DNA from: Thermodesulfobacteriota bacterium
GTDB lineage: Bacteria > Desulfobacterota_D > UBA1144 > Nemesobacterales > JAJCZQ01
Reading direction: 5' to 3'
Assembly (NCBI GenBank): GCA_965215275.1
Contig: OZ244044.1
Coordinates: forward strand, 179,679 to 243,678
DNA: 64,000 nt
Under the pieces are notes generated by a model. The model was not told the DNA's origin and ran no database searches. It saw only the letters and a program-made list of their open reading frames with translations. Within the stretch, counting starts at the first letter, position 1, and every line of letters begins with the position of its first letter. Shown here piece after piece: positions 1,220 to 61,491 of the stretch. Both the position numbers and the translations under genes were made by a program.

Positions 1220-1242
1220 TTAAGAACAATGTTTAAGATAAT

Positions 1243-1252
1243 CCCCCCCCCC
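1243..1252 (+). repeat. Homopolymeric C10 tract inside the 5' coding region, between ATG 1229 and the signal peptide; candidate translational phase-variation switch
   Basis: ATG(1229)-TTT-AAG-ATA-ATC-C10 runs into TAA at 1256. With C9 or C12 the ATG frame reads MFKIIPPPSKSLLTLVLFILFIMVIAAKG, which continues into the 1296 ORF. Confidence 0.8.
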
Positions 1253-1295
1253 ATCTAAGTCATTACTTACGTTAGTTTTATTTATTCTGTTTATA

Positions 1296-4200
1296 ATGGT
1301 AATAGCTGCAAAAGGGCAGAGCAGCCTGGAAGAAACATTATCTGAATGCAGAGGTATGAGTGCAGACACGGAAGATCCGTTATACGGATGTCAGTGGCAT
1401 CTGAAAAATACAGGACAGTTTAGTATTTCCGGAAATAGAATAACTGCAGGAGAAGATATAAACATAGAGGGAGTGTGGAACGAATACGTATACGGTACCG
1501 GAATTAACGTAGCAGTTGTAAGTGACGGTATCGACCTTTCACATGAGGACCTTTCTGCAAACGTACGTTCCGAACTGAACTATAGTTTTTCTGAGAAAGA
1601 TAATTCTGACAGTTCATCCTTTACCGGAACACGAGCAGCAGGTGTTATTGCAGCGGCTGGATATAACGGACTGGGAGTAAGAGGAACAGCACCTGGTGCG
1701 AGTATATACAGTTACAGGTTATCCGGTGATCTCAGGGAAGCGGACGCGGTGGTCCGTAATAAAGAAATAACAGCAGTATCGGTTAACGGCCTGGGATCTG
1801 AGGACGGAGCTTTTTTTCAGGAGGCTTTATCTTCCTGGGAAGAAGGAGTGGAACTTGGTATAAGTAAAGGGTTTTATGGTAAAGGAGTGTTTTACGTCCG
1901 GGGAGCAGGGGACGGGCATGAGAATAACGATCAGGCTAATTTTTCTGAATATTCTAATTACTACGGCGTAACAGCCGTGTGTTCAACTGACGGTTATGGA
2001 AAAAAGAGTATTTTTTCAGAAGAGGGAGTAAATCTCTGGGTATGTGCACCTGGTTCTGATATTGTAACCACAGATAACAACAACGATTACGTTGTAACTT
2101 CCGGAACATTTCTATCAGCTTCACAGGTCGGAGGAGTGGCTGCACTGCTGAGAGAGATAAACGGGAATCTGAGCTGGAGGGATATAAAGCTTATACTTGC
2201 GGGTTCAGCACGTCAGAACGATTTTTCTGATATTAGCTGGGAGACAGGAGCTGTTAAATACGGCTCTGACACGGAAAGATATAATTATAATCCTAAGTAT
2301 GGTTTTGGCGTGGTAGACGCAGAAGCAGCTGCAGAACTTGCAGGAAGCTGGAAAGGCGTTGGAGAGATGAGGACCGTTACCGCCTTTTCAGATAATGAAA
2401 TAACAATTCCTGATGGAGAAGGAGAAGCGGATGGAATACTTACCTCCACACTTATGATCCCGGACCTGGAGGAAATATTTACGGAATTCGTGGAGGTAGA
2501 ACTTGTTTTCTCTCATGACCGCTTACAGGACCTTAATATACAGATAACCTCTCCTTCCGGGACAGTATCTGAACTTGTGCGGGAGGTTGTAAGGGGATCT
2601 TCGAATGAAGAAGAAAACTGCGTCAGTTACCTGAGAAGAACACATCGTTTCGGGTCGGCTAAGCACCTCGGAGAAGACCCTTCCGGAGAATGGATCCTTA
2701 ATATATCTGATACTGCTTCCGGAGATGCAGAAAACACTGTTACCTTACACTCATGGAGCATTAAGGTATACGGGCATTTTTATCAGGGAACTGGCAATGA
2801 GATAAATCCTAAACATCACAGACTGAATTTTGGCGGTCAGACAATTCAGGATCAGGAGTATCAAGTAGAAGTTCAGATAGCACCATTAGTGCTGCCTAGG
2901 GCAACTGGAGATACTGGAATACAATATAATTTGACTGATGATCCAAACACAGATGGATTTGCCACTAATGTACCAATTGATGGATTGAGTTTTAACCGTG
3001 GAACCAGAACTCTAAGTGGCACACCCACTAATACTGGGTCTTTTGATCTCATATACAGCGCTGTTGGTAGAACAGACGGTACTGCTGCTCAACTTGAGTT
3101 CAACGTTACGGTGGTAAACGTCCCTACCTTCGGAGGTCAGACCATACCAGATCATACGTATGCAAGACTTCAGACAATAAGAAATCCGTTAACTTTTCCT
3201 AAAGCAACGGGAGGGAATGCTCCCTTGACTTACAGTATAACTCCTAAGGTACAGACTGGACTTGCTTTCAGCAGTTCCACTCGGAGGATAACCGGGTCAC
3301 CTGGGACTGTAAGGAGCAGAACTGAGCATACGTATACGGTAACGGACAATGAGGGAGATACGGCTGAGATAACGTTCGGTATAACCGTAGAAGGAAATGA
3401 CAGGAGGCCGCGTTTCAGAGCAGGTGAGAATATCTCTGATAAGTTTTATTTTACAGGTGTTCCGATAACGCCGGTAACGCTGCCCAGGGCAACTAACGGG
3501 AACAGTCCGATAAAATACAGTTTAAATCCTTCTTTACCAACTGGATTGAGCTTTAACGCAAATACCCGGGAGATAAGCGGGACACCGACTGCTGCAAGCA
3601 GTAACACAGAGTATACATACAGAGCATCAGACCTTGATGGAGACAGGCGTGATCTGAAGTTCAGTATCACGGTAAGGGATGCAACTGACGTACCGACCTT
3701 CGGCAGTGAGACGATAGATGATCAGGAGCATACAGCAGGGAGTCAGATAACACCAGTAACGCTGCCTGAGGCAACATCAGGAGATGCTCCGTTAATATAC
3801 CGTTTAACCCCTGCCTTGCCTGATGGATTGATCTATAACAATATCACCGGAGTTATAAGCGGAACACCGACTGCTGCAATGTCTGAGACTATGTATACAT
3901 ATACAGTAACGGATAATGATGGAGATACGGATGAGCTGACGTTTAATATTGAGGTAGCAGCAAGCTTCAGCAACGTAACGATAGAAGATAAGGTGTATAT
4001 AGCAGGTACAGCAGTAACGGAAATGCTGCCTGAGGCAACTGGACATAATGGAACGGTAACCTACAGTTTAACCCCATCATTACCAACTGGACTGGACTTT
4101 AACACAGCTACCCGGGAGATAAGTGGAACACCTTCTGCTGCATCGTCTCAGACTGCTTATACATATACCGTTACTACTGGTGCAGGAGGACCTGCACGAA

Positions 4201-4688
4201 CTTTGACGTTCAGGATAACAGTAGAAGAAGACAGCATGCCGGACTTCAGCGGTACAGCAATACCTGATCGGGTGTACACGGGGAGAGCAATAACGCTGCC
4301 GGAGGCAACGGGAGGGAATCCACCAGTTACTTACAGTATAACACCTGATCTGCCAGCTGGATTGAGATTTAACGAAGTAACGCGGGAAATAAGTGGGACA
4401 CCCAGGAGTGCATCAACAAGAACTTACACGTATACGGTAACGGACAGCAATGGAGATACGGATGATGCGACTTTCATGCTCAGTGTAGAGGTTACTTCTA
4501 CTCCAGGACCAACACCACCACGAGGACCAAGAACGTCAGGTACTGATTCAGGCGGAGGTGGAGGAGGATGTGCCGTCTCAGATCAGATCAGCGTTGTTTA
4601 TGATATTCTCGGAGCAGTGGCATGTCTGATACTTATACCTGTATCAGTAGTTATCAGAAGGAAGAGAAGAGCTCAGATAAAGACGTAG
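1296..4688 (+). CDS. Kexin-like (S8B) subtilase-family surface protein with P-domain, six He_PIG/cadherin-like repeats and a C-terminal Gly/Cys-TM-RRKRR sorting-type signal. The ORF as sequenced begins at 1296; the full-length form would start at ATG 1229 if the C-tract length changed.
   Basis: Asp motif VVSDGIDLSHEDL. The His region is TGTRAAG, where kexins have HGTRCAG. The Ser region is GTFLSAS, where GTS is expected. The P-domain ends in the GEW...HSWSIKVYG pattern. The repeats follow the pattern LPxATGGNxPLTYSxxPxLPxGLxFN..ISGTP..YTYTVTD.GDTD. The C-terminus is GGGGGGCAVS-hydrophobic helix-RRKRRAQIKT. Confidence 0.75.
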   Translation: MVIAAKGQSSLEETLSECRGMSADTEDPLYGCQWHLKNTGQFSISGNRITAGEDINIEGVWNEYVYGTGINVAVVSDGIDLSHEDLSANVRSELNYSFSEKDNSDSSSFTGTRAAGVIAAAGYNGLGVRGTAPGASIYSYRLSGDLREADAVVRNKEITAVSVNGLGSEDGAFFQEALSSWEEGVELGISKGFYGKGVFYVRGAGDGHENNDQANFSEYSNYYGVTAVCSTDGYGKKSIFSEEGVNLWVCAPGSDIVTTDNNNDYVVTSGTFLSASQVGGVAALLREINGNLSWRDIKLILAGSARQNDFSDISWETGAVKYGSDTERYNYNPKYGFGVVDAEAAAELAGSWKGVGEMRTVTAFSDNEITIPDGEGEADGILTSTLMIPDLEEIFTEFVEVELVFSHDRLQDLNIQITSPSGTVSELVREVVRGSSNEEENCVSYLRRTHRFGSAKHLGEDPSGEWILNISDTASGDAENTVTLHSWSIKVYGHFYQGTGNEINPKHHRLNFGGQTIQDQEYQVEVQIAPLVLPRATGDTGIQYNLTDDPNTDGFATNVPIDGLSFNRGTRTLSGTPTNTGSFDLIYSAVGRTDGTAAQLEFNVTVVNVPTFGGQTIPDHTYARLQTIRNPLTFPKATGGNAPLTYSITPKVQTGLAFSSSTRRITGSPGTVRSRTEHTYTVTDNEGDTAEITFGITVEGNDRRPRFRAGENISDKFYFTGVPITPVTLPRATNGNSPIKYSLNPSLPTGLSFNANTREISGTPTAASSNTEYTYRASDLDGDRRDLKFSITVRDATDVPTFGSETIDDQEHTAGSQITPVTLPEATSGDAPLIYRLTPALPDGLIYNNITGVISGTPTAAMSETMYTYTVTDNDGDTDELTFNIEVAASFSNVTIEDKVYIAGTAVTEMLPEATGHNGTVTYSLTPSLPTGLDFNTATREISGTPSAASSQTAYTYTVTTGAGGPARTLTFRITVEEDSMPDFSGTAIPDRVYTGRAITLPEATGGNPPVTYSITPDLPAGLRFNEVTREISGTPRSASTRTYTYTVTDSNGDTDDATFMLSVEVTSTPGPTPPRGPRTSGTDSGGGGGGCAVSDQISVVYDILGAVACLILIPVSVVIRRKRRAQIKT
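2808..4500 (+). repeat. Tandem array of six roughly 95-aa He_PIG/dystroglycan-cadherin-like repeats inside paralog 1
   Basis: The periodic motif PxATGGNAPLTYSITP...TREISGTPT...YTYTVTDNDGDTDE is visible in the translation. Confidence 0.7.
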
Positions 4689-6894: not shown

Positions 6895-7686
6895 GTGTAT
6901 ATTTCAGAAGACGATAATTTAAGTATATACAGATTTAAAGTAGAAAACAGTGGTAAGAACTTTAATTACATAGTTAAATGCAATCAAACGGGAGAATGCG
7001 TTGTGATAGACCCGCTTGACCCGGTTCGATTGCTGAACTTTGTAAGAAAGAACGATATGAGAGTGTCTTATGTAATAAATACCCACGGTCACCCCGATCA
7101 CGTTGAGGGAAATAATCCCATAATTAAGGTTTTTTTGTCATCTAATATCTTAATACACGAACTTGGTATGGATTTTGTTGCACCAAGAGCGGAAGCATTA
7201 AAAGAAGGGGACGTTATAAGTTGTGGTAAACTTAAAATAGATGTTCTGCACACCCCGGGTCACTGCCCCGAACATATTTCTTTAATGATCGGCAGCAATA
7301 TATTTGTAGGAGACACTATTTTTGTCTCCGGATGTGGAAACACAAAGTTCAGAGGTAATACTGATGAACTCTATGAAACTTTCTCAAGTAAGCTGATGAA
7401 ACTGGAAGATGATCTTAATGTGTTCTGCGGGCATGATTATGCAAAAAATAATTTAGAATTTGCTTTAAGTATTGATCATAATAATCCTCATATAAACAGT
7501 AAATTAGAAGAAATTAAAAAACAAAATGAGGTTTTATCTACGATCGGAGAAGAGAAAAAATATAATCCTTTCATGAGAGTTGGTGAAAAAAGTCTGGTCA
7601 GTGCCTTAAAAGAGAAATACCCTGATATGAAGACAGATGAGAGGTCCGTGTTCATTAAATTAAGAGAGCTTAGAGATAACTGGTAA
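6895..7686 (+). CDS. MBL-fold metallo-hydrolase, glyoxalase II-like
   Basis: HxHxDH motif INTHGHPDHVEGN. Size is consistent with a hydroxyacylglutathione hydrolase-like enzyme. Confidence 0.7.
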   Translation: MYISEDDNLSIYRFKVENSGKNFNYIVKCNQTGECVVIDPLDPVRLLNFVRKNDMRVSYVINTHGHPDHVEGNNPIIKVFLSSNILIHELGMDFVAPRAEALKEGDVISCGKLKIDVLHTPGHCPEHISLMIGSNIFVGDTIFVSGCGNTKFRGNTDELYETFSSKLMKLEDDLNVFCGHDYAKNNLEFALSIDHNNPHINSKLEEIKKQNEVLSTIGEEKKYNPFMRVGEKSLVSALKEKYPDMKTDERSVFIKLRELRDNW

Positions 7687-7720
7687 AGTGGTTCTTGTTC
7701 AGGGTAGGGCAGGGGGGGGG

Positions 7721-7741
7721 GCACGTCTCAAGTGGTTTTAA
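7721..7741. repeat. G-rich tract GGGTAGGGCAG11, including an 11-G homopolymer at 7731-7741, lying between convergent 3' ends
   Basis: Seen directly in the sequence. It has G-quadruplex-forming potential. Confidence 0.8.
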
Positions 7742-7749
7742 CTGATTTT

Positions 7750-8541
7750 TTAAAACAGACCTTTACTATAACCACCATCTATCTGAATGGTGTTCCCGGT
7801 TATGTAGCTGGCTCTTTCTGAAACCAGAAAAGCCACCATCGAACTGAATTCTTTTGGGTCGCCGATCCTCCCGACTGGAATATCGGATTCCATACCCTTA
7901 ATAACCGTTGTGAGATCCTTTTTTGTTTCTTCAGCTCTTTTTTCAGCGAGTTCCCTGATCCTATCGGTCATTATCCTTCCAGGACACAGGTTATTAACCA
8001 GTATATTAAACTTTCCATACTCATTGGACAGGGTCTTGGCAAAACCAATTACTCCGGTTCTAGCTGTATTTGAAAGGATAAGACCCTCTATGGGCTGCTT
8101 TACGGCAATTGAAGTAATATTGATTATCCTTCCCCATTTTTGCTTTTTCATGTATGGAAGAACCTCTTTTGTTAAATTAATAACGCTCAGGAGGTTCAGT
8201 TCCAGTGCACTCTGCCAGTCTTTTGATCTGAAGTCTTCAAAATAACCAAAAGGCGGGCCGCCCGCGTTGTTTATAACTATGTGAACCGTTTTATATTCTT
8301 TTATGGTGGACCTAACGACGTTTTTTATATCTTTGGTACTTTTTGCATCGGCTCTTAAAGATAGGACCCTGGTTTTGTATTTTTCTCTTATTTCGTCTGC
8401 TGTTTTTCTGATATCAGCTGAATTTCTTGAAAATATAGTTAAGTTACATCCTTCGGCAGCCAATTCTTCGGCACATGCTCTGCCCAGTCCTTTGCTGGAT
8501 GCTGATATTATTGCAACTTTGTCCTTTATACCTAAATTCAT
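7750..8541 (-). CDS. SDR-family oxidoreductase
   Basis: N-terminal dinucleotide-binding motif SASSKGLG and an NNAG motif. The canonical YxxxK appears to be replaced by S...R (SNTARTGVIGFAK); this comes from a memory-based alignment. Confidence 0.65.
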   Translation of the reverse strand: MNLGIKDKVAIISASSKGLGRACAEELAAEGCNLTIFSRNSADIRKTADEIREKYKTRVLSLRADAKSTKDIKNVVRSTIKEYKTVHIVINNAGGPPFGYFEDFRSKDWQSALELNLLSVINLTKEVLPYMKKQKWGRIINITSIAVKQPIEGLILSNTARTGVIGFAKTLSNEYGKFNILVNNLCPGRIMTDRIRELAEKRAEETKKDLTTVIKGMESDIPVGRIGDPKEFSSMVAFLVSERASYITGNTIQIDGGYSKGLF

Positions 8542-18383: not shown

Positions 18384-19700
18384 AAGGGAATTATAGTGAA
18401 TAGTTGACAGGAAGAAAAATTGAAAACGGGTCAGAAAATGGGTAATATTATAGCATGGTTAGAACGATCACAAGAACTGTAAAGGCAGATAGTGTTTTTC
18501 ATAAAAGGCTGGATGAATTCTTACAACAGCTTACCGACCTGTATAACGGAGCTTTATATCACAGATTAAGATCTTATGACTGGTATGAAAAAACTATCTC
18601 TAAATACGAACAGTTTAACGAACTAACTGAGGTCCGAGAGCAAGACAAGGAATTTGAAAAGTTTAATGTTGTAGCTCAAAGAAGCGTTCTGGAAAGACTG
18701 GATAATGCATATAGTCCTTATTTGAACTATTTAAAGAATAAAAAAGCAGGAAAGAAGGTGGGCAGACCAAAATACAAAGGTCCAAACAGACCTGTCAGAA
18801 GTTTTGAAACAAACAATTATAAAAACATTGAAAAGATCGGCAGAAGAACGTATTTAACGATAAAGGGACTTGGCAGATTATCTTTCAAAGGTTCTATGCC
18901 TGATGGAGTTGTTTTAAAACAACCTAAAACAACAATAAGGATAGTTAAAACTGCTATAAGGATAAAGATCCAGTTTCTATGTGAGTTTACCAGCGAAAAG
19001 AAAAGACCTATGGACAGGTCCATAGGGATCGATCTTGGAATTATAAACAGAATGGCTTTTTCAGATGGAACTAAAATACCAGGAGTTCGGTTGAACAGAA
19101 AGGAACTGAAAAGAAAGCAGAGAATTGTTTCAAGAGCGGTAAAAGGTTCTGACAGCAGAAAGAAGAAAGTTTTATCGTTAGCAAAGGAATGGGAACGAAC
19201 TACCGATCGTGAAAATAACGCTATACACAGAATGACTACCGAAATAGTAAAAAAGAACAATCATATAAAGTTGGAGGATTTAAAGATCCAAAATATGGTA
19301 AAAAATCCTTATTTAGCAAGAAGTGTAACGGAACAGCAATGGGGGAAGATTAAAACCCAACTTGACTACAAAGCCGAGATAGCTGGAGGCAAGTTAGTTT
19401 TAGTTAATTCCCATTATACAACAATGACCTGTTCTGAATGCGGAAAGGTAAATCCAAAACTGCCTTTGTCTGAAAGAGTATTTAACTGTATATATTGCGG
19501 TTATTCAGAAGACAGGGATATAAATGCAGGTAAAAATATCAATACTCTTAATGAAGGAGACTTCATATCGGGTGGGAATAAGGTAGAAATACTCCCGATG
19601 AGTGCTAAGAGTATCAGATCAAAAGAGAACAGGGATAGAGGAACTCTGCACTCAGAACAGTACGAGTAGTTGTTTGTCAACTATTCACTATAATTCCCTT
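18384..19700 (+). mobile_element. TnpB-only insertion element (IS200/IS605-family OrfB type) bounded by perfect 26-bp terminal inverted repeats
   Basis: 18384-18409 reads AAGGGAATTATAGTGAATAGTTGACA, and 19675-19700 is its exact reverse complement. Confidence 0.75.
18455..19669 (+). CDS. tnpB: TnpB (OrfB) RuvC-like RNA-guided nuclease-family transposase accessory protein
   Basis: RuvC-I motif IGIDLGI. C-terminal zinc finger CSECG...CIYCG. RuvC-III motif RDINAGKNI. Confidence 0.8.
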   Translation: MVRTITRTVKADSVFHKRLDEFLQQLTDLYNGALYHRLRSYDWYEKTISKYEQFNELTEVREQDKEFEKFNVVAQRSVLERLDNAYSPYLNYLKNKKAGKKVGRPKYKGPNRPVRSFETNNYKNIEKIGRRTYLTIKGLGRLSFKGSMPDGVVLKQPKTTIRIVKTAIRIKIQFLCEFTSEKKRPMDRSIGIDLGIINRMAFSDGTKIPGVRLNRKELKRKQRIVSRAVKGSDSRKKKVLSLAKEWERTTDRENNAIHRMTTEIVKKNNHIKLEDLKIQNMVKNPYLARSVTEQQWGKIKTQLDYKAEIAGGKLVLVNSHYTTMTCSECGKVNPKLPLSERVFNCIYCGYSEDRDINAGKNINTLNEGDFISGGNKVEILPMSAKSIRSKENRDRGTLHSEQYE

Positions 19701-22731: not shown

Positions 22732-24035
22732 TTGTCAATGGGAACTATATACTTAAGTATCCAGTGGATACTAAAAGTTCTCTTTGACGAGTCATAGACC
22801 AGTTCCTGTCCCCAACCCCTCTGCAGTCTCCCCGTCCAATCACCCCTTTCCCTGAGGCTATAATTTGTTTTATTCCAGTTTCCAACTGGTTAAATGCAGC
22901 ATTTAAGTCAGCATTAACTTCATAACCGCAAGATGTACACTTAAATCTGGATTGCGATCTTCTGTTATCAGGAGATCTGTGTCCGCATTCAGAACAGGTT
23001 TGACTGGTATATGCAGCTGGAACTTCTTCAGTAGCATTACACTTGTAATCCAGCATCCTTTTCATATCAAACCAGCCAGTAGCACGAATGTTCCTGTTCA
23101 TCTTGCGAAAGTTCTTCCATTTCTTTCTGGCTGTCATCCCTTGTGTATTAAGTCTCTCAAGTACAGGAACATCATAAAGATCGGAGATCTTTCTTGTAAC
23201 CTGATGTCTCCAGTCCTTCTGTCTGTTTGCCAGCTTCCTATGAAGTTTCTGTAACCTTTCCTTAGTAATTCTCCACCTGTTACTTCTCTCTTCCTGACGT
23301 GCAAGTTTCTTTTGGTATCTGCGTATCTTTGCTTCTGTAAGTTCATCATCAGATAACTTAAAAACCTGTCCGTCAGACAGCGTAACCTGTCTTGAATTCC
23401 TGTCCATTGCTACAACTCTTACTTCTTTCTTTTCCTTTTTAGTTTCATCTATCTCATAGGTAAGGTACGCATACCACTTACCGCATTCCTTCCTTATCCT
23501 GCCAGAAAGGAACTTTCCATCAGGATATGGATTCTTACCTGCCAACCTGAACCATCCAACCTTTAAAATACGGAGCCACTTATTATCTGACAGTTTAGCT
23601 GACTGATAATTTACCGGGAATGAAGGAGTGGTTTTTAATTTACTCTTGAATTTAGGTTGTCCCGATTTTCCATCCCTGTATCTCTTACAGGCATTTGTAA
23701 GGTCCAGTAAATAATGCTGAAGTATGTAAGCAGATGCTTCTTTCAGAAAGTAGTTCTTTTCTTCTTTCTTCAATTCTCTCAAATCGTTACCTAAACTCTC
23801 ATGACCATAACCATCATTAAAATCATTATCCTTTAAATTTCCCACGAATTGATTCCAGATAAACCTGCAACAGCCAGCAGTAGAGGAAAGTTTATGAAAC
23901 TTCTCCCTGTTGTTTGATCTCAACCTCTGCCTTACCGTTCTTATTGTCTTACCTTCTTTCATATTTGTAATTTTACCTTATTCCCTTGCTTTTTTTAAGT
24001 AGTTTGGATAGTTAAGTATATAGTCCCCTTGTCAA
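22732..24035 (-). mobile_element. Second, distinct TnpB-only insertion element with imperfect terminal inverted repeats of about 30 bp
   Basis: 22732-22762 reads TTGTCAATGGGAACTATATACTTAAGTATCC. The reverse complement of 24006-24035 is TTGACAAGGGGACTATATACTTAACTATCC. Confidence 0.65.
22745..23962 (-). CDS. tnpB: TnpB (OrfB)-family protein
   Basis: C-terminal zinc finger CSECG...CTSCG and RuvC-III-like VNADLNAAFN; 405 aa. Confidence 0.8.
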   Translation of the reverse strand: MKEGKTIRTVRQRLRSNNREKFHKLSSTAGCCRFIWNQFVGNLKDNDFNDGYGHESLGNDLRELKKEEKNYFLKEASAYILQHYLLDLTNACKRYRDGKSGQPKFKSKLKTTPSFPVNYQSAKLSDNKWLRILKVGWFRLAGKNPYPDGKFLSGRIRKECGKWYAYLTYEIDETKKEKKEVRVVAMDRNSRQVTLSDGQVFKLSDDELTEAKIRRYQKKLARQEERSNRWRITKERLQKLHRKLANRQKDWRHQVTRKISDLYDVPVLERLNTQGMTARKKWKNFRKMNRNIRATGWFDMKRMLDYKCNATEEVPAAYTSQTCSECGHRSPDNRRSQSRFKCTSCGYEVNADLNAAFNQLETGIKQIIASGKGVIGRGDCRGVGDRNWSMTRQRELLVSTGYLSI

Positions 24036-24240: not shown

Positions 24241-26694
24241 TCAGGTCTTTATCCGAGACCTAATCTTCCTTCTTATCACAACAGATACAGGTATAAGCAT
24301 CAGCGATGCCACTGCTGTGAGCATATCAGGAACGGCTTCGCTCTGACCGGAGACCGCACATCCTCCTCCGCCTGTATCACTACCTGATGACGTTGGTCTT
24401 TGTGTCGGTGGTCTTGTTGTTGGTGGGTCTGTCGGTCCTGGCGGCGTAGTTGTTACCCTGATCGTAAATCTCAGCTCATCCGTATCTCCATCTTCGTCCG
24501 TTACCTTATATGTATAACTGCCAGAAGATACAGCAGTCGGTGTTCCGCTGATAACTCTGTCAGTTTCACTGAAAGCAAGTCCAGCAGGTAAACCAGTAGC
24601 AGGTAAAAGAGGGGACAGGCTGTAGGTCAGTTCTCCATTCCCTGCTGTTGCCTCAGGCAGTGTTTCTTTTATTGCAGTTCCCGGCACGTAATTCTTATCT
24701 GGTATGGTCCAGTTGTTAAACGTCGGCGTGTCCCCAGACATATGACCATAGACCTTTATGTTCCATGAGTGTAAGGTCCCCGTACCTGCAATTGAATTGT
24801 TAGTTATCTTCAAGGTCCACTCTCCAGCAGGGTCCGTTCCTAAGTGATTGGCTAAACCAAAACGATGTTCCCTGCCTGTGTACTTAAAGTCGTCTACAGT
24901 AAGAGATCCGTCAGATAAATGTGATAACGCTTCTGATGCATATTCCTCAGTGAGTTTTGACACGGTAGTATCGTCAGGAGAAGTTATTTCTATATCTAAA
25001 AAAGGAAAGAAAGGATGGGTAAAATTGATACCTATCTCTATAAATTCCGTAAATACCTCAGTGTCTGGTATATCTATATCAGGTACTGTCAGTGTGAAAA
25101 CAACTGAAACGTCTTCTGCGTTTTCCCCCGTTGTGAAGTCTGGTATAACCGTATTGATATTACCCGAGGAAACCGTCACGGGTTTCATTTGCGGTGGAAC
25201 GTTGGTCCAGCTTTCTGCAAGTTCCACTGCAGCTGCAGCGTCTACTGTGCCAAAAGTATCTACTGTGCCAAAACCGAACTTTGGATTGTAAAAATAATAC
25301 TCTGAATCAGAACCGTATTGAAGTGCTACTCTCTTCCATTCTTGGGTATCACCGGAACGGGAGCCCTGGCTGGCTGAACCTGCCAAGATCAGTTTCAGGT
25401 CTCGCCAGCTAAGATCACTGTTTACCTCTCTCATCAGTGCTGCAATTCCTGAAACGACCGCTGCTGAATTTGACGTTCCAGGGAACTCAAAAGTATAACC
25501 GTCGTTATTGTCGGTAGTTACAATACCGGAACCCGGTGCACATACCCATAGATTGTATCCCTCTTCTGAAAAGGAACTCTTAGTAACAGCGAGCGCATCC
25601 CTATCGATCTCTGATGAACATACGGTAGTTACTGCGTAGTAGTTGGAATACTCATCAAAATTAGCCTGGTCTGATCCTTCATGTCCGTCCCCTGCCGCCC
25701 ATACGTAAAACACCCCTTTACCACCAAATCCTTCTCTTATACCCGTTCTCACCCCTTCTTCCCACTCTGATGAAGCCTCTGTAAGAACGGGAAGGTCCTT
25801 CGGTCCCCAGTTGTTGACCGATACAGCAGTTATATCCTTATTACGGACCATGGCGTCCTTTGCATTAGCATCACTGAAGTTACCAGCTAAATTATAACTG
25901 TAGATGTTTGCCTCAGGTGCTACACCTCTTACTCCAAGGCTGTTATCACCCACTGCTGCTATAATGCCAGCTACACGTGTTCCACGACCACTGAAAGGAC
26001 TGTACAGATCACCATTCCCAGAGTAATCATGAGAAAGTGTGGTATCTACATTGTCAGCAAGGTCCTCATGGTCTGTGTCCATACCATGATCTACCACCGC
26101 TACGTTAATCCCAGCACCAAATACGGCATCATCCCAGACATCTTCTATGTTTATGTCTATATCTTGTCTGGCGGAGGTTTGGAATACCTTATCGCCACCT
26201 AATATTACATCAACCGCTGGAGATTCCAGATACCACTGACAGCCGTATAAGGGATCATTTGGAAAATTGGTAGTAATAATTGAACAGGTTTCAAAGAGTT
26301 GATTAGAATCAGCTAATTGAACTTGAACTCGATAGGATGTAGCACCACTGCTTCCTACAACGATATAGTACGTTCCCCGTCTGAGGTGAGTTTGTATAGA
26401 TATATTTCCTAGTAGCCTTTCATCACTTGGGTCCACTACTTCAGTAGTACTTGCTATCAGATCATCATTACTGTCACATACCTGTAGGCTGTATTCCTGA
26501 TCATTGGAGAAGGGGAAGGTTACCAATATATCTGCAATAAAATCTCCATTTATGTTTATCTGAAAGTAATGCGGATCAGCACCGGCAGCTAAACTTCCAT
26601 TGTGTGTTGGTCCTTGCACTCTCAACGTAGCTTCGGTCGTTGCACTGGAGTCACAGTTGTTAATGCTGGTCTTACCATATGCACTAATGGACAC
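24241..26694 (-). CDS. Kexin-like (S8B) subtilase-family surface protein, paralog 2. It has an N-terminal beta-sandwich-type pre-domain, a P-domain, one He_PIG repeat and the same C-terminal sorting-type signal. The full-length form would start at ATG 26758 if the C-tract length changed.
   Basis: Asp motif VVDHGMDTDHEDL. The His region is RGTRVAG, with no His. The Ser region is GTSNSAA. The P-domain ends in GEWTLKITNN...HSWNIKVYG. The C-terminus is GGGGCAVS-hydrophobic helix-RRKIRSRIKT. Confidence 0.75.
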   Translation of the reverse strand: MSISAYGKTSINNCDSSATTEATLRVQGPTHNGSLAAGADPHYFQININGDFIADILVTFPFSNDQEYSLQVCDSNDDLIASTTEVVDPSDERLLGNISIQTHLRRGTYYIVVGSSGATSYRVQVQLADSNQLFETCSIITTNFPNDPLYGCQWYLESPAVDVILGGDKVFQTSARQDIDINIEDVWDDAVFGAGINVAVVDHGMDTDHEDLADNVDTTLSHDYSGNGDLYSPFSGRGTRVAGIIAAVGDNSLGVRGVAPEANIYSYNLAGNFSDANAKDAMVRNKDITAVSVNNWGPKDLPVLTEASSEWEEGVRTGIREGFGGKGVFYVWAAGDGHEGSDQANFDEYSNYYAVTTVCSSEIDRDALAVTKSSFSEEGYNLWVCAPGSGIVTTDNNDGYTFEFPGTSNSAAVVSGIAALMREVNSDLSWRDLKLILAGSASQGSRSGDTQEWKRVALQYGSDSEYYFYNPKFGFGTVDTFGTVDAAAAVELAESWTNVPPQMKPVTVSSGNINTVIPDFTTGENAEDVSVVFTLTVPDIDIPDTEVFTEFIEIGINFTHPFFPFLDIEITSPDDTTVSKLTEEYASEALSHLSDGSLTVDDFKYTGREHRFGLANHLGTDPAGEWTLKITNNSIAGTGTLHSWNIKVYGHMSGDTPTFNNWTIPDKNYVPGTAIKETLPEATAGNGELTYSLSPLLPATGLPAGLAFSETDRVISGTPTAVSSGSYTYKVTDEDGDTDELRFTIRVTTTPPGPTDPPTTRPPTQRPTSSGSDTGGGGCAVSGQSEAVPDMLTAVASLMLIPVSVVIRRKIRSRIKT

Positions 26695-26732
26695 AAAGCA
26701 CAGAAGAAAGAAAAAAGGAATTAATAACTTAT

Positions 26733-26744
26733 GGGGGGGGGGGG
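26733..26744 (-). repeat. Homopolymeric C12 tract on the coding strand (G12 on the plus strand), lying between the upstream ATG and the signal peptide of paralog 2
   Basis: ATG-TTG-AAG-TTT-CTC-C12 runs into TAA. With C11 or C14 the frame reads MLKFLPPPHKLLIPFFFLLCFVSISAYG, which continues into the protease frame. Confidence 0.8.
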
Positions 26745-26767
26745 AGAAACTTCAACATTATTATATT

Positions 26768-26796
26768 ATTGTACTTATGTCCAGCTGAAAGGTCAA
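26768..26796 (-). promoter_or_regulatory. Putative sigma70 promoter of paralog 2: TTGACC, a 17-bp spacer, then TACAAT
   Basis: Near-consensus hexamers with 17-bp spacing. The ATG at 26758 is 9 nt after the -10 element. Confidence 0.6.
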
Positions 26797-26807
26797 GTAT
26801 ATATGGA

Positions 26808-26817
26808 GGGGGGGGGG
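26808..26817 (-). repeat. Homopolymeric C10 tract on the coding strand (G10 on the plus strand), 11 bp upstream of the -35 element of paralog 2
   Basis: Position is homologous to the C11 tract at 1172-1182. Confidence 0.85.
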
Positions 26818-27048
26818 TAACAGAGATACGCGTTTTTAAACTCATAATAGTGATATTCTACTTCTGTTCTGCTGTAATGTCAAGTATAACGTCTTTCTCT
26901 TTCCCTTTTTTACAGTGATAAAGATCTTCAGGATATACGGATCATTCCTAAAATAACAATGAATAATTAAGACAATGCGACAGAGTTTGATAAAATAGAT
27001 CAAAGTATTATCTGAAACTAAAACCTGTACTTTATCTGACTATATATT

Positions 27049-55800: not shown

Positions 55801-57040
55801 GTTCTTTAATGACCTCATCCAGTGCGTCCCAGACTTTCGGGTCTTCCTGCTCAACGAGTTTCTTTGCTATTTTAATGGTTAACGCGTAGCCCCATTCCTC
55901 GAGTTTCTGATAGATAAATGGCTTGAACAGTTCAAGTGCCATCTGCTTCGGCAATCCGCACTGATGGAGTTTCAGTTCCGGACCGACCGTGATCACGGAC
56001 CTTCCAGAGTAATCCACCCTCTTACCTAATAGGTTCTGTCTGAACCTTCCCTGTTTTCCTTTTATTATATCGCTAAGGCTTTTTAAAGGTCTGCGGTTGT
56101 GTCCAAGTACGGGTCTGCCTCGTCTGCCGTTCTCAAGGAGTGCATCCACTGATTCCTGAAGCATTCTCTTTTCATTTCTTACGATAATGTCAGGTGCTCC
56201 TAGTTCCGTCAGTTTTTTCAGTCTGTTGTTCCTGTTTATGACCCTTCTGTACAGGTCGTTCAGGTCGGAGGTTGCAAACCTGCCTCCGTCCAGTGGTACC
56301 AGTGGTCTGAGGTCCGGCGGCAGAACGGGGATCATTGTTAAGATCATCCACTCCGGCTTGTTCTTTGACTTTCTGAACGCGTCACATACCCTCAGCCTTT
56401 TTGCTATCCTTGCTCTTTTGATCAGATCTTTCGTTCTCTTGATCTCGTCTTTCAGATCCTCGGACAGGGCGAGCATATCCCTGTTCTTAAGCATTTCCCT
56501 GATGGTTTCAGCACCCATGCCGACTTTGAAAGTCTGACCGAATTCGTCAAGCAGCTGTCTGTATTCTTCTTCGTTTATGACCTCGCCGTACTTTAATTTC
56601 GTAGGACCGGGGTCGTAAACGACGTAAGCCTCAAAATACAAGGTCTTCTCAAGGTCTTTCAGGGTCATGCCCAGAAGCATGCGGATGATCTTCAAAAACC
56701 ATATATGAACGGTCGGTGATACGAGTTTAATATGGGCCATTCTTTCGCGTCTGACCTTTGAGGATATGACTTCAACCCCGCATTTTTCACACGTTATACC
56801 TCTGTGCTTTAACCTCTTGTACTTTCCGCAGGTGCATTCGTAGTCTTTGACCGGCCCGAATATCTTGGCACAGAACAAACCGTTCCTCTCTGGTTTGAAA
56901 GTTCTGTAATTGATGGTTTCCGGTTTGGCTATCTCACCCCAAGACCACTCTTTTATCTTTTCTGGTGAAGCAATGGATATCTTTACCGTCGAATAATCGG
57001 ATGGGTTCTTCGGTTTTTCAAAAAGGGTATCTATTTCCAC
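52877..57040 (-). CDS. rpoC: DNA-directed RNA polymerase subunit beta'
   Basis: Zinc-binding Cys motifs and the NADFDGD active site. Confidence 0.95.
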
Positions 57041-60000
57041 TTATTATCTAAACCTCCATTATTATTTTCTGTTTGCTCTTCGATCAGATCAACGTTCAGC
57101 ACCAGGGATTGAAGCTCCTTCTGAAGCACTTTAAATGATTCAGGAAGCCCAGGTTCGAAGTTCAGGTCACCTTTCACTATTGAATCAAATATCCTGGTAC
57201 GTCCCACTACGTCATCGGATTTAAAAGTAAGGAATTCCTGCAGGGTATAGGAGGCACCATAAGCTTCAAGTGCCCAGACTTCCATTTCTCCAAGTCTCTG
57301 TCCGCCAAAATGTGCCTTACCGCCCAGCGGCTGCTGGGTCACGAGCGAGTAAGGTCCGATCGCCCTTGCATGTATCTTTTCTTCCACGAGATGGTGGAGT
57401 TTCAGCATATACATTATCCCGACCGTCACTTTCTGGTCAAAGGGTTCTCCTGTATGACCGTTGAACAGTATTGTCTTACCGTCCATCGGGAGGTCAGCTT
57501 CCTTGTACAGTTCTTTGATCTCGCTTTCCTTTGCTCCGTCAAATACGGGTACTTTGATCGGAATACCGTCTTTAAGGTCCTTGGCAAGTTCAACCACTTC
57601 ACTATCGCTCAGGGAATCCAGGAACTTTAAAAACTCCGCAGAACCTGAATAATAGGTTTTAAACTTCTTTCTGAGCGAATCAGCACTGAACTCTGCTTCA
57701 ATGTATTCGTTCAGCTGTCTTCCCAGTTCCTTGGCCACCCATCCCAGATGGGCTTCAAGTACCTGCCCCACGTTCATTCTGGACGGTACCCCAAGTGGAT
57801 TCAGGACCATGTCGACCGATCTTCCATCAGGCAGGTAGGGCATATCCTCTTCCGCCAGTATTTTTGACACGACCCCTTTATTGCCATGTCTGCCGGCCAT
57901 CTTATCCCCGACCTGGAGTTTCCTTTTAGCGGCTAAATAAACCTTGACTATTTTCAGGACCCCTGGCTGCAGTTCATCCGGTTTTTGCAGATTTGATATT
58001 TTCCGCTCGTATGCTTTTTTAACTATATTTATATGCTCCGATGTACTGTCAACGATCGCCTTCACCTCGTTCTCGACCTTTGATGATCCTGCAACGTTTA
58101 TATCCGGCAGTTTTTCGAACGGCACCTCGTTTAAGATATCTTCGGTTATGACCTCATCCTTTTTTAATATGGTCTTTCTGGCCAGTTTAAAACTGGATGC
58201 GGATCTTTTACCAGCTATCAGCTTGTTTACTTTACTTCTGGCGTCTTTTTCCAATCTGAGAACGTCTTCTTCCCTTTCCTGTTTTAATTTTGCGATATCA
58301 GAGGTATCTATCGCTTTGGAAATACTGTCCTTATCAACTGCCCGGGATACTAACACCTTGACGTCAATGACCGTTGCATAGGTCCCGGGGGACGCTTTTA
58401 AAGAAGTATCTTTAACGTCACCGGCCTTATCACCGAATATGGCCTTCAGAAGTTTTTCCTCGGGAGAGAGCTGGGTTTCACCTTTCGGGGATATTTTTCC
58501 TACAAGTATATCTCCCGGCTTGACCGTGGCCCCTATTCTTATAATTCCGTGTTCATCCAGGTTCCTCAGGGATTCTTCCCCTGCGTTCGGAATATCCCTT
58601 GTGATCTCCTCCTTGCCCAGCTTGGTTTCACGCGCCACGCATTCCTCTTCTTCTATGTGGATCGATGTAAAAGAATCATTTTTTAAAAGTCTTTCACTGA
58701 CAAGTATGGCGTCTTCGAAGTTATATCCTCCCCATGGCATAAAGGCCACGGTTATGTTCTTACCCAGGGCCAGTTCGCCTTCATCCGTGGACGGTCCATC
58801 AGCCACCACCTGTCCTTTTTTTACCATCTGCCCGCTCGACACTATAGGCTTCTGGTTCCAGCAGGTGCTTTGGTTCGATTTCTGGAACTTGATCAGATTG
58901 AATATATCGACACTTCCATTTGTCCCTTCGGTGCCACTTGACCTTACCACGATCTTGTTTGCATCAACGTAATCCACTATACCGTCATTCTTTGCAATGG
59001 CGGTAACACCTGAATCCTTGGCAACTGTGCTTTCCATACCCGTACCTACGATCGGAGAACTCGTTTTTATAAGCGGGACCGCCTGACGCTGCATGTTCGA
59101 TCCCATTAATGCCCTGTTAGCGTCGTCGTGCTCTAAGAACGGTATCAGCGAAGCAGATACGGAGACCAGCTGGTTAGGTGATACGTCCATCAGCTCGACC
59201 CTTTCACTTTTTTCCCTTTTGAACTCACCTTCATGACGCGCGGAGATGAACTCGGCCTTGAACACGCCTTTATCATCAACGGGAGCATTTACCTGAGCTA
59301 TAACGAATTTTTCTTCTTCATGTGCGCTTAAATGCACGATCTCATCAGTTACTAACCTGTCCTTTACAACTCTGTAAGGCGTCTGAATAAACCCATATTG
59401 ATTTACCGTTGCGTAGGTGCTCAGGCTGGATATTAACCCGATATTCGGGCCTTCAGGCGTTTCAATGGGACATATCTTTCCATAATGTGATACATGGACG
59501 TCACGCACTTCAAATCCTGCTCTTTCACGTGTTAAACCACCAGGACCCAAGGCACTGAGCCTTCTCTTATGGGTGATCTCGGACAGGGGATTGGTCTGGT
59601 CCATGAACTGTGAAAGTTGTCCGGTGTTGAAAAATTCCTTCACGACCGAAGTGACGGTCTTCGGCATTAATATCTCACTTGGCATCATATCTTCTACCGG
59701 CTGGTAGCTCATCTTTTCCTTTACTGATTTGGCAAGTCTTTTAACGCCGTGGTAGAACCTGTCCTCTATAAGTTCTCCTATTGTCTTTACTCTTCTGTTG
59801 CCAAGATGATCTATATCGTCCGTACTGCCCTTGCCTCCCTGAAGGTCGAGCAGATATTTGATCGTACGGCATATATCCTCTTTGCTTAAGTGAAGATGAT
59901 CGTCAGGAAGGTCCATTCCCAGCTTATAGTTGATCTTTATCCTGCCGACCTTTGAAAGCCTGTAGGTCTCGGGATTAAAGAACATGTTCTCAAAAAAATC

Positions 60001-61491
60001 CCTGGCCACCTTTAACGTAGGCGGGTCTGTAGGTCTGAACCTTTTGTAGATCTCCTTTATTGCATCTTCGGCCGTCTTGGTCTTATCCTTATCATCAAGG
60101 AGCGTGTTCCTGAGAGAAGCAGAAACAGTATCATCGTCTATGTAAAAGACCTTGAACTTTTCTACGCTGTTTTTCTTCAGACCATCTATTACTTCGTCTG
60201 TGATTGGTTCATTGAAATCAACAAGTATTTCACCCGTGTCCGGGTCCATTATATCCTCAGCACAAAAATATTTTTCCTTATCTGTGGTCAGACCCGTGAT
60301 CTCGTTCTTATCTATCGGAAAGACGTCAACTCCGGCTTTTTCAAGCTTTCTTAACGTTCCTTGCCCGAACCTCATATCTTTGCGGACAAGCGTGTCACCT
60401 GATTTTTTATCAACTATATCCACACTGGCCTTCTGGTATTTTATAGTTTCTTGATTGATCTCTTTTTCAAATCCTTCCTCCGTTATATGAATGACCTCAA
60501 CGGGATAATAGTAGTTCATTATCTCACGTGGACCATAACCCATGGCCTTGAGAAGTATAGTGACGTGGAATTTTTTCTTTCTGTCTATCCTTACGTGCAT
60601 CAGGTCCTTTGAGTCAAACTCAAAATCCAGCCATTTACTGCCTTCCTGGGGAATTATCCTTGCAAAGAAGGAACCTTTACCAAGCGAACTGTCCTTGCTC
60701 TTACCGAAGAACACCCCCGGCGAGCGATGTAGCTGGTTTACTATTACTCTTTCGGTTCCGTTTATAATGAAGGAACCATTACCGGTCATAATGGGAAGTT
60801 CGCCAAAGTAAACTTCCTGTTCCTTTATCTCCCGGATGTTCTTCTTATGTGATATTTCTACGGTTGCACCGGCTGCCTCTAATTTCTTCCTGACATCCTT
60901 AGCTTCTTCCTCTTCGGAGTAATGCTCCACCTGCACGCCGTCTTCAGGGTCCTTAGAGACCAGTGCGATCAGGTCCTTGGCCCCTTTAACTCCCAGACCG
61001 GCAACTTCCTTTACGGTTTCGATGACCTTATTTTTATCTTCACCGATCTGCTTCAGAGCAACCGTGTATGAAACGTCCCATACTATAAGTCTGAAAGTCA
61101 CGTGCAGAGGAGAAACGTAGGTGTATCCTTTTAACCTGCATTCCCCTTCTTCATACTTGGGGTCGTCCAGTTTGTACCTTACATACTCCAGGCTGGATCT
61201 CTTGTTACTGTCCTCAACGGGAAAGACCGTCTTAAAAGCTGCATGCAGCCCTTTTGGCTCCCTGTCTTCGTGTTTTATTTCAGCCTGTAGGAAATCTCTG
61301 TAGGACTTGGTCTGAACTTCCAGCAGATGTGGGATATTTAAAACGTTCGGTATTTTAGAAAAAACCTTTCTATACAGGTGTCTCTCGTGTTTCTGCGCTC
61401 TCAGGTCAGATACGCTGTCTTTGCCAGCAGCTGTGAGCTGTGCCGTTATATGTCTTTCGTTTTTTTGTGCTCTCAAATTAGATACCCTCAA
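57031..61491 (-). CDS. rpoB: DNA-directed RNA polymerase subunit beta, carrying an in-frame L7/L12 C-terminal-domain-like insertion of about 75 aa and a duplicated N-terminal segment
   Basis: Conserved beta-subunit regions throughout. Residues about 141-217 ([20 protein letters not shown]...[13 protein letters not shown]) resemble the RplL C-terminal domain ([22 protein letters not shown]...[13 protein letters not shown]). Confidence 0.9.

Follow-up and report, generated by a model that had tools for sequence, protein, structure and literature searches.

Poly-C tracts at the 5′ ends of a kexin-like protein family as probable contingency switches in a Dadabacteria-related bacterium

In a 64,000-nucleotide stretch of the genome of a Thermodesulfobacteriota bacterium (GenBank assembly GCA_965215275.1, contig OZ244044.1, positions 179,679 to 243,678 of the forward strand; hereafter the window, numbered from its first letter), two paralogous genes for large kexin-like proteins each carry a long run of C between a start codon and a signal-peptide-like segment. 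An earlier note on this DNA had interpreted the run in the first gene (locus 1) as a slipped-strand switch of translation. Here, we describe this tract, a twin arrangement at a second gene (locus 2) and related genes in other assemblies, and weigh the explanations for them.

Locus 1, on the plus strand, reads directly as ATG (1229-1231), the codons TTT AAG ATA ATC, a run of ten C (C10, 1243-1252), ATC and the stop codon TAA (1256-1258), and translation from this start as sequenced gives the truncated product MFKIIPPPI* (1229-1258). On re-reading, the earlier coordinates and codons for ATG 1229, the tract and TAA 1256 proved exact. The signal-peptide-like segment SKSLLTLVLFILFIMVIAAKG (1254-1316), predicted from sequence alone and constant in position across the family, lies in a different frame, that of the main open reading frame (ORF) at 1296-4688. 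This frame is open from 1242, directly behind TAA 1239-1241, and translates as SPPPSKSLLTLVLFILFIMVIAAKGQSS; between that stop and ATG 1296 it contains no ATG, GTG or TTG. Hence, a signal-peptide frame with a stop just upstream and no start of its own, as had been claimed, is indeed present. ATG 1229 is one base out of register with this frame of 1149 codons (1296 - 1229 = 67). With C9 or C12 at 1243-1252, ATG 1229 would be fused to the main frame as MFKIIPPPSKSLL; the translation agrees with the predicted joining of start, PPP and signal peptide, and paralogs with such N-termini exist. In both wrong frames termination follows 1-9 codons past the coding tract.

The earlier description did not include a second tract, C11 at 1172-1182, which lies 71 bp ahead of the coding tract. 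It belongs to an upstream module that begins with the promoter-like site P1 (1096-1125, plus strand; TTGACA-18-TAAAAT, TG-extended, 11/12 matches in a scan), an element kept with a spacer of 17-18 nt in 7/7 related 5′ regions. A start codon 9 nt past the -10 hexamer (ATG1) opens a short ORF, MKNSNIKTHSSITPPPI* (1135-1188), which spans the upstream tract. If 1172-1182 were C10 and not C11, this ORF would continue in frame into ATG 1229 (ATG2). A weaker promoter-like site, P2 (1191-1219; CTGACC-17-TATTTT), was recognised by eye, being below the scan threshold; it ends 9 nt before ATG 1229 and contains TGACCTTTCAG, which is common to locus 2. As a general regulatory site TGACCTTTCAG was rejected, since exact matches occur only in the two modules, their orthologs and one unrelated place.

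The same layout is found at locus 2 on the minus strand, likewise absent from the earlier note. Here, P1 (26855-26883; TTGACA-17-TAGAAT, from the promoter scan) is followed by an upstream tract of C10 (26808-26817, G10 on the plus strand), by P2 (26768-26796; TTGACC-17-TACAAT, 10/12 in the scan), which ends 9 nt before ATG 26758, and by a coding tract of C12 (26733-26744, G12 on the plus strand). As sequenced, the reading from ATG1 at 26845 passes via ATG2 at 26758 to TAA 26731-26729 and gives MSLKTRISVTPPPPYILDLSAGHKYNNIIMLKFLPPPP (26729-26845), and the reading from ATG2 at C12 is MLKFLPPPP, one C too many as at locus 1; C11 or C14 would give MLKFLPPPHKLLIPFFFLLCFVSISAYG. The 5′ regions of the two loci can be aligned, with the common order P1, ATG1, 9-12 codons, tract 1, P2, ATG2, 4 codons, tract 2 and signal-peptide-like segment. 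At both loci ATG1 and ATG2 are each 9 nt past their own -10 hexamer, the distance from tract to tract is 71-75 bp, and the upstream tract lies 8-11 nt upstream of the -35 element of the P2-like site. ATG1 is in frame through ATG2 when the upstream tract is C10, which is the case at locus 2 of the window and in L018, the copy of locus 1 in a second assembly; C11 or C9 leads to an early stop.

Runs of this length stand apart from all others in the window, whose GC content is 43.6%. Its 10,734 C-runs become about five-fold fewer with each added base; two reach length 6 and then none occurs until lengths 10 and 11, while no G-run lies between length 5 and the runs of 10, 10 and 12. Extrapolation predicts well under 0.01 C or G runs of at least 10 nt, and five are observed. 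These five (in plus-strand letters, C11 at 1172-1182, C10 at 1243-1252, G10 at 7712-7721, G12 at 26733-26744 and G10 at 26808-26817) are also the only G/C runs above 6 nt in the 64 kb, and 4/5 lie in the 5′ regions of the two kexin-like genes. Poly-G/C of at least 7 nt is taken as slippage-prone (the PhasomeIt cut-off, PMC6321876); the window tracts C10, C11, C10 and C12 and the C8-C10 tracts of related loci are all longer. Moreover, CCC makes up 19.7% of proline codons over the 18,835 codons of the window, and the poly-C modules use CCC exclusively; elsewhere in the window PPP occurs once, coded CCT CCC CCG. Selection for poly-proline as a peptide was ruled out as the cause of the run because of these CCC-only codons against a 20% background, and we therefore regard the run as a device and not as a requirement of the peptide.

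With the hypothetical in-frame N-terminal half of locus 1 as query, about 22 relatives of 50-88% identity came up on one contig of 1,990,023 bp, and further relatives on contigs of three other assemblies. Look-ups for proteins identical to the 1130-aa product of locus 1, to Ham1 and a short-chain dehydrogenase (SDR) of the window or to P0029 of the large contig had no match, and for this contig the census of ON and OFF genes is based on called N-termini only. A few of these are in frame and follow the pattern M..F(K/R)IIPPP.K plus signal peptide, as in MNIFFKIIPPPSK, MNISFRIIPPPYK and ..NILFRIIPPPIK; P0015, P0122 and P0123 start MNIFFKIIPPPSKLVITFFFLLCF, P0008 starts MNISFRIIPPPYKSL, and P0005 and P0121 include ..NILFRIIPPPIKSV. 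Most other called family proteins start at a methionine within or after the signal peptide (MSIGAYGQ, MCFVSIGAYGQ, MVIAAKGQ, MRVQGAA), presumably because their true start is out of frame for the gene caller.

Loci available as DNA allow the tracts themselves to be counted. In every tract-bearing paralog examined the coding tract follows after 4-7 codons and precedes the hydrophobic h-region of the signal peptide, and the lengths found are C8, C9, C9, C9, C10 and C12. L012 (ERZ21848999) has a single module, TTGACA-18-TAAAAT-10-ATG followed by 7 codons and C8 then G, and is in frame. L019 (GCA_964348445.1) and L020 (ERZ21849000) have single modules with C9, are out of frame and need C10. The tandem modules are those of locus 1 (C10) and locus 2 (C12), each needing one C fewer, and of L018 (ERZ21849000; coding tract A+C9), the locus 1 ortholog, also with one C too many. 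Hence, the registers 0, +1 and -1 are all occupied: in frame are L012, P0005, P0008 and P0123, long are locus 1, L018 and locus 2, and short are L019 and L020. Such mixed registers are expected from random length change and not from a recoding signal that acts in one direction.

The tract module appears to be confined to the close family. A single scan of genome contigs returned only relatives of about 40% identity, in metagenome-assembled genomes (MAGs) of Dehalococcoidia and Acidimicrobiales with 59-71% GC, and their loci contain no C or G run of at least 8 nt; the module is therefore taken as specific to the close family. In a scan of Joint Genome Institute (JGI) metagenomes the pattern C7+ATAAGTTATTAATTCC had no match, and the promoter-ATG pattern had 21 matches, all of them chance promoters without tracts. 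P0125 and P0126 (696 and 678 aa) were considered as an ON/OFF pair and rejected, since their loci have no poly-C tract and they differ in start-codon choice only.

Copies of loci 1 and 2 in independent assemblies were reached via the neighbouring DnaJ and CTP synthase proteins, and flank identity between the assemblies is 93-99% at both loci. In L018 (ERZ21849000, with SPAdes-style contig names) the coding tract of locus 1 reads ATA+C9 where the window has ATC+C10; this A-to-C substitution, which changes the run from 9 to 10, is the sole difference there, and the total length and the out-of-frame register are equal. The earlier note had named an in-frame consensus length, or the lack of the tract from independent assemblies, as evidence against a switch; the second assembly has the tract, at the same length and in the same out-of-frame register, which makes an error of the consensus in the coding tract unlikely. 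The upstream tracts do vary: at locus 1, C11 in the window against C10 in L018, and at locus 2, within near-identical flanks, 10 in the window against 9 in L016 (G10 and G9 in plus-strand letters). The coding tract of locus 2 falls in L016 at an error-ridden contig end (about 100 nt, L016 1-110). The contig of L017 breaks off at tract 1, where its last 52 nt are a poly-G artefact (7251-7302).

Downstream of the tracts both genes are intact, with 1149 stop-free codons at locus 1 and 830 at locus 2 and no internal stop over 800-1149 codons. Between locus 1 and L018, both out of frame, synonymous divergence (dS) is 0.20 and the ratio of nonsynonymous to synonymous rates (dN/dS) is 0.17 over 344 codons; paralog pairs give a dN/dS of 0.32-0.49. 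Purifying selection together with long open frames speaks against decay and requires some expression of these genes, be it for at least some of the time or by slippage.

The main ORF of locus 1 (1296-4688, plus strand; ORF list, Pfam and alignment) encodes 1130 aa from ATG 1296, with a kexin/furin-like S8 domain, a P-domain, five He_PIG immunoglobulin-like (Ig) repeats, a Gly-rich/Cys segment, a transmembrane (TM) helix and a basic tail. That of locus 2 (24241-26694, minus strand; same sources) encodes 817 aa from GTG 26694, with S8, P-domain and He_PIG and the same C-terminal tail, and its protein is 100% identical to P0029 of the 1,990,023-bp contig; the window is therefore very probably part of that genome or of one nearly identical to it. 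In both, Pfam PF00082 and PF01483 score above cut-off, the S8 fold preceding the P-domain, and furin and kexin are the best solved relatives (E about 1e-33). The assignment of locus 1 as a subtilase thus stands for the fold and the P-domain; as to activity, the catalytic triad is replaced throughout (Asp to Ser, His to Thr, Ser to Phe), and at locus 2 His is replaced by Arg, so the products are probably not active proteases. At the position of the catalytic His, 36 family sequences have Arg (23), His (8), Thr (2), Ser (2) or a gap (1). A subgroup with intact triad includes P0011/P0125 and P0012, whose loci, examined as DNA, have no 5′ tract. This distribution suggests that an enzyme family may have been recruited as a variable coat from active-triad paralogs, which lack 5′ tracts among those examined. 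With a signal-peptide-like N-terminus, He_PIG repeats and a C-terminal TM helix with basic tail, features predicted to be of surface type, the tract-bearing genes are best described as putative exported, anchored Ig-repeat proteins on a dead convertase scaffold. The C-terminal tail, GGGG(G)C-x15-20-hydrophobic helix-IRRK.R..IK (4540-4688 and 24241-24390), resembles a CTERM-type sorting signal; as a curated sorting domain it was rejected, matches to Synerg-CTERM, GVDTG and Heimdall-CTERM being sub-threshold.

We consider it probable, at roughly three in four, that the C10 tract works as a contingency switch through slipped-strand mispairing, along with many other hypermutable homopolymers in a large family of kexin-like proteins that would be exported and anchored in the membrane. 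All tract-bearing genes have a conserved 5′ module. It opens with a near-consensus promoter of sigma-70 type and an ATG 9-10 nt past the -10 hexamer; 4-7 codons further on come 8-12 nt of pure CCC, coding for Pro-Pro-Pro, then an n-region with Lys and the hydrophobic signal peptide. One C gained or lost in replication would bring the start codon into register with signal peptide and protein, or take it out of register; locus 1 (C10) and locus 2 (C12) would both be OFF as sequenced, each one deletion from ON. With a minority of family genes ON per genome, individual cells would display different subsets of the surface proteins. The constant tract position, the three registers, the in-frame relatives, the pure CCC, the dN/dS of 0.17 and the register of L018 all support the slipped-strand switch that the earlier note had proposed. 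We infer that length change within the population is frequent; use of the promoters and start codons and arrival of the protein at the surface would be parts of the same picture.

Several observations weigh against this switch. At locus 1 the two assemblies agree in the register of the coding tract, with no length change seen. Where length does differ, in the upstream tracts, the window is 1 nt longer in both pairs, which may reflect a platform bias, although the coding tract 71 bp away is equal in the same pair. That contigs L016 and L017 end at tracts indicates that the tracts are hard to sequence. Finally, 5/6 tract-bearing DNA loci are out of frame, which also fits decoding across the tract without any change of DNA.

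Such decoding, by stuttering of RNA polymerase or by a +1 shift of the ribosome on CCC-C (Pro-tRNA slippage, poly-proline stall), would yield full-length protein from out-of-frame DNA, either constitutively or at a low, regulated level, and we consider it unlikely, if the most serious of the alternatives. CCC-C is a classic +1 shift-prone site, and at least 9 identical bases cause transcriptional slippage. Most DNA-level loci are out of frame and yet intact under purifying selection, and locus 1, L018 and locus 2 would all need a +1 shift. L019 and L020, however, would need -1 or +2, and L012, P0005, P0008 and P0123 none, so that no single direction serves the family. Nor is there a stimulatory RNA structure: the leader folds have z-scores of -0.87 and +1.45 and no Rfam match. 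A structured-RNA leader or riboswitch was rejected on the same kind of evidence, with no Rfam match at gathering score in the whole window and no fold stability. Transcriptional slippage is documented for A/T runs (PMC1088944); this survey covers A and T runs only, and no text on G or C runs was found. Leaky decoding on top of DNA switching is quite possible.

A homopolymer error in the consensus, with a true tract of C9 or C12, a gene that is simply ON and an artefactual frameshift, seems improbable. Homopolymers of at least 10 nt are error-prone on all platforms, the contigs with SPAdes-style names L016 and L017 end at the tracts or degenerate beyond them, and the excess of one nucleotide in both upstream tracts of the window would be explained in this way. 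Against this, an assembly from a diverged strain (dS 0.20) arrives at the same total length and out-of-frame register with A+C9, out-of-frame C9 occurs also in L019 and L020 while C8 is in frame in L012, and the error would have to strike locus 2 independently. Consensus calling at such lengths can be reproducible, as a G10 called identically in L013, L014 and L015 indicates. Still less probable is decay, by which both genes would be pseudogenes of a small genome (about 2 Mb), inactivated by a frameshift at a hot spot of mutation and with no reversible function. In its favour, gene calls for many family members of the 1.99-Mb contig are fragmentary (P0001 with 457 aa; P0002, P0004 and P0014 starting deep inside), an internal C10 interrupts one family gene in L019, and catalytic residues are lost. 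These triad replacements, however, are subgroup-wide and old and not recent damage, the 1149 and 830 codons downstream of the tracts are free of stops, and a dN/dS of 0.17 was obtained against an ortholog with the same frameshift register. Promoter, start codon, tract and signal peptide have moreover been kept together as a module.

For the slipped-strand switch, the tandem modules raise the question of what the upstream tract contributes. It may have a translational role on P1 transcripts, or it may affect the adjacent P2-like site. We suggest, tentatively and with much less confidence than for the switch itself, that the tandem promoter, near-leaderless ATG and poly-C modules of the two window genes act as a switch of two tracts, whose output could take more than two levels. 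Transcripts of the strong upstream promoter would start translation at ATG1 and give full-length protein only with both tracts in register, and those of the weaker second promoter would need the second tract only. With at least 20 independently switching copies, combinatorial surface variation could result.

In known systems, the closest likeness in arrangement is to Neisseria opa, a multigene surface family with a CTCTT repeat between the start and the hydrophobic core of the leader, independent switching and most copies out of frame. As in opa, a scattered family of surface proteins would here carry its own repeat per copy between start codon and leader core. Opa has a pentamer repeat, encodes small beta-barrel adhesins and belongs to a cultured human pathogen in which switching has been measured; here, in contrast, the repeat is a homopolymer and the proteins are kexin-like, with 800-1100 aa. 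The general biology of repeats in Neisseria is covered in PMC5320596. In Campylobacter, a gene is treated as phase-variable if poly-G/C of at least 7 nt lies in its reading frame or promoter (PMC6321876). The tracts of Campylobacter and Helicobacter have 8-13 nt, a small genome contains dozens of them, the run-length distribution shows a sharp gap, and ON is defined by the longest product (PMC6321876, PMC2823697). Poly-G/C runs in reading frames or promoters and a gap in the run-length distribution are shared with our loci. However, the tracts of Campylobacter and Helicobacter are mostly in glycosyltransferase, capsule, flagellar modification or single outer-membrane genes, and here they recur in a 5′ module common to one expanded family of paralogs.

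In Bordetella fim (poly-C) and Neisseria opc, porA and nadA, a repeat in the promoter or directly ahead of it tunes transcription of a surface protein, and porA combines a promoter and a coding tract. The poly-G tracts of Treponema pallidum tpr belong to the same group (PMC7864442). The upstream tracts described here resemble those of fim, opc/porA/nadA and tpr in lying near a -35 element, that of the P2-like site, and in varying between assemblies. They differ in being outside the -35/-10 spacer and inside a short ORF with a promoter-proximal ATG, and may act translationally, instead or additionally. In Listeria monocytogenes inlA, reversion at a 5′ poly(A) was measured experimentally at about 1000 times the rate of point mutation (PMC2831843). 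There too, a homopolymer a few codons past the start of a large surface protein leads to a short truncated peptide; inlA, however, is a single gene with an A-run of 7, and here C-runs extend across a gene family. Taken together, the mechanism is of a known kind, the lineage and gene family are new, and the arrangement in tandem modules is unusual.

Long G/C tracts also occur elsewhere in the window and in the related contigs. The fifth long run of the window, G10 at 7712-7721, lies in the 63-bp gap between a metallo-beta-lactamase/glyoxalase II-like gene (6895-7686) and a convergent short-chain dehydrogenase gene (7750-8541), has no nearby gene start and stands outside the 5′-switch pattern. 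In L019 an internal C10 (19371-19380) between S8 and P-domain splits the family gene into ORFs of 540 and 956 aa; at C11 both would be joined (..IIIPSPPPDHLDGK..), and this may be a second switch position or a pseudogene. The G10 common to L013 (3287-3296), L014 (6211-6220) and L015 (12940-12949) is identical in three assemblies and precedes the start codon of a small ORF, an ATG, by 5 nt. In addition, there is a C9 about 21 codons into a 172-aa ORF (L020 9256-9264), a C9 inside the gene of a 587-aa membrane protein (L012 2188-2196) and a G12+G9 cluster at a contig end (L015 13546-13573). The lineage seems generally rich in long G/C tracts.

The organism is known from metagenome assemblies only. 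Among named organisms, Candidatus Dadabacteria provide the nearest CTP synthases (70-74% identity); Dadabacteria MAGs are listed in a genome note on a sponge, to which this sequence could not be linked. The window represents core chromosome, with genes for DnaJ, the pyruvate dehydrogenase (PDH) complex, RpoB/RpoC and aminoacyl-tRNA synthetases. Two full-length genes for TnpB (IS605 OrfB/Cas12f-like) lie at 18455-19669 (plus strand) and 22745-23962 (minus strand), one of them directly downstream of locus 2, and TnpB fragments in L014 (2535-2948) and L015 (9264-9677) are directly upstream of tract-less family genes. These positions suggest that family 5′ ends may have been remodelled by insertion sequences. 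A separate feature is found in the rpoB ORF (57031-61491, minus strand), where a segment matching the C-terminal domain of ribosomal protein L7/L12 (Pfam PF00542, E 1e-11) is inserted at about 60853-61068, between N-terminal RpoB sequence and RpoB domain 1/2, as an insertion and not as an rplL fusion.

Our results can help to understand why proteins of this family are incompletely represented in databases. Gene callers systematically shorten them, and many entries start at an internal methionine; in SPAdes-style and MAG assemblies the 5′ ends of the family are systematically missing or mis-called, with contigs breaking at the tracts. Conversely, counting of tracts in existing metagenome reads could directly read out surface variation at the level of the population.

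Phase-variable contingency loci are textbook knowledge for a few cultured pathogens, but descriptions of them from environmental or symbiotic lineages that are uncultured are rare. If the switch is real, a genome of about 2 Mb spends roughly twenty or more genes of 800-1100 codons each on one exported Ig-repeat family, most of them one C from expression. This would imply strong and fluctuating selection on the cell surface, by host recognition, grazing or phage, in a little-characterised organism of a candidate phylum; that the organism is host-associated is our guess. Were the reading with two tracts also true, it would mean combinatorial surface variation, built on catalytically dead kexin-like proteins, in an uncultured Dadabacteria-related bacterium.

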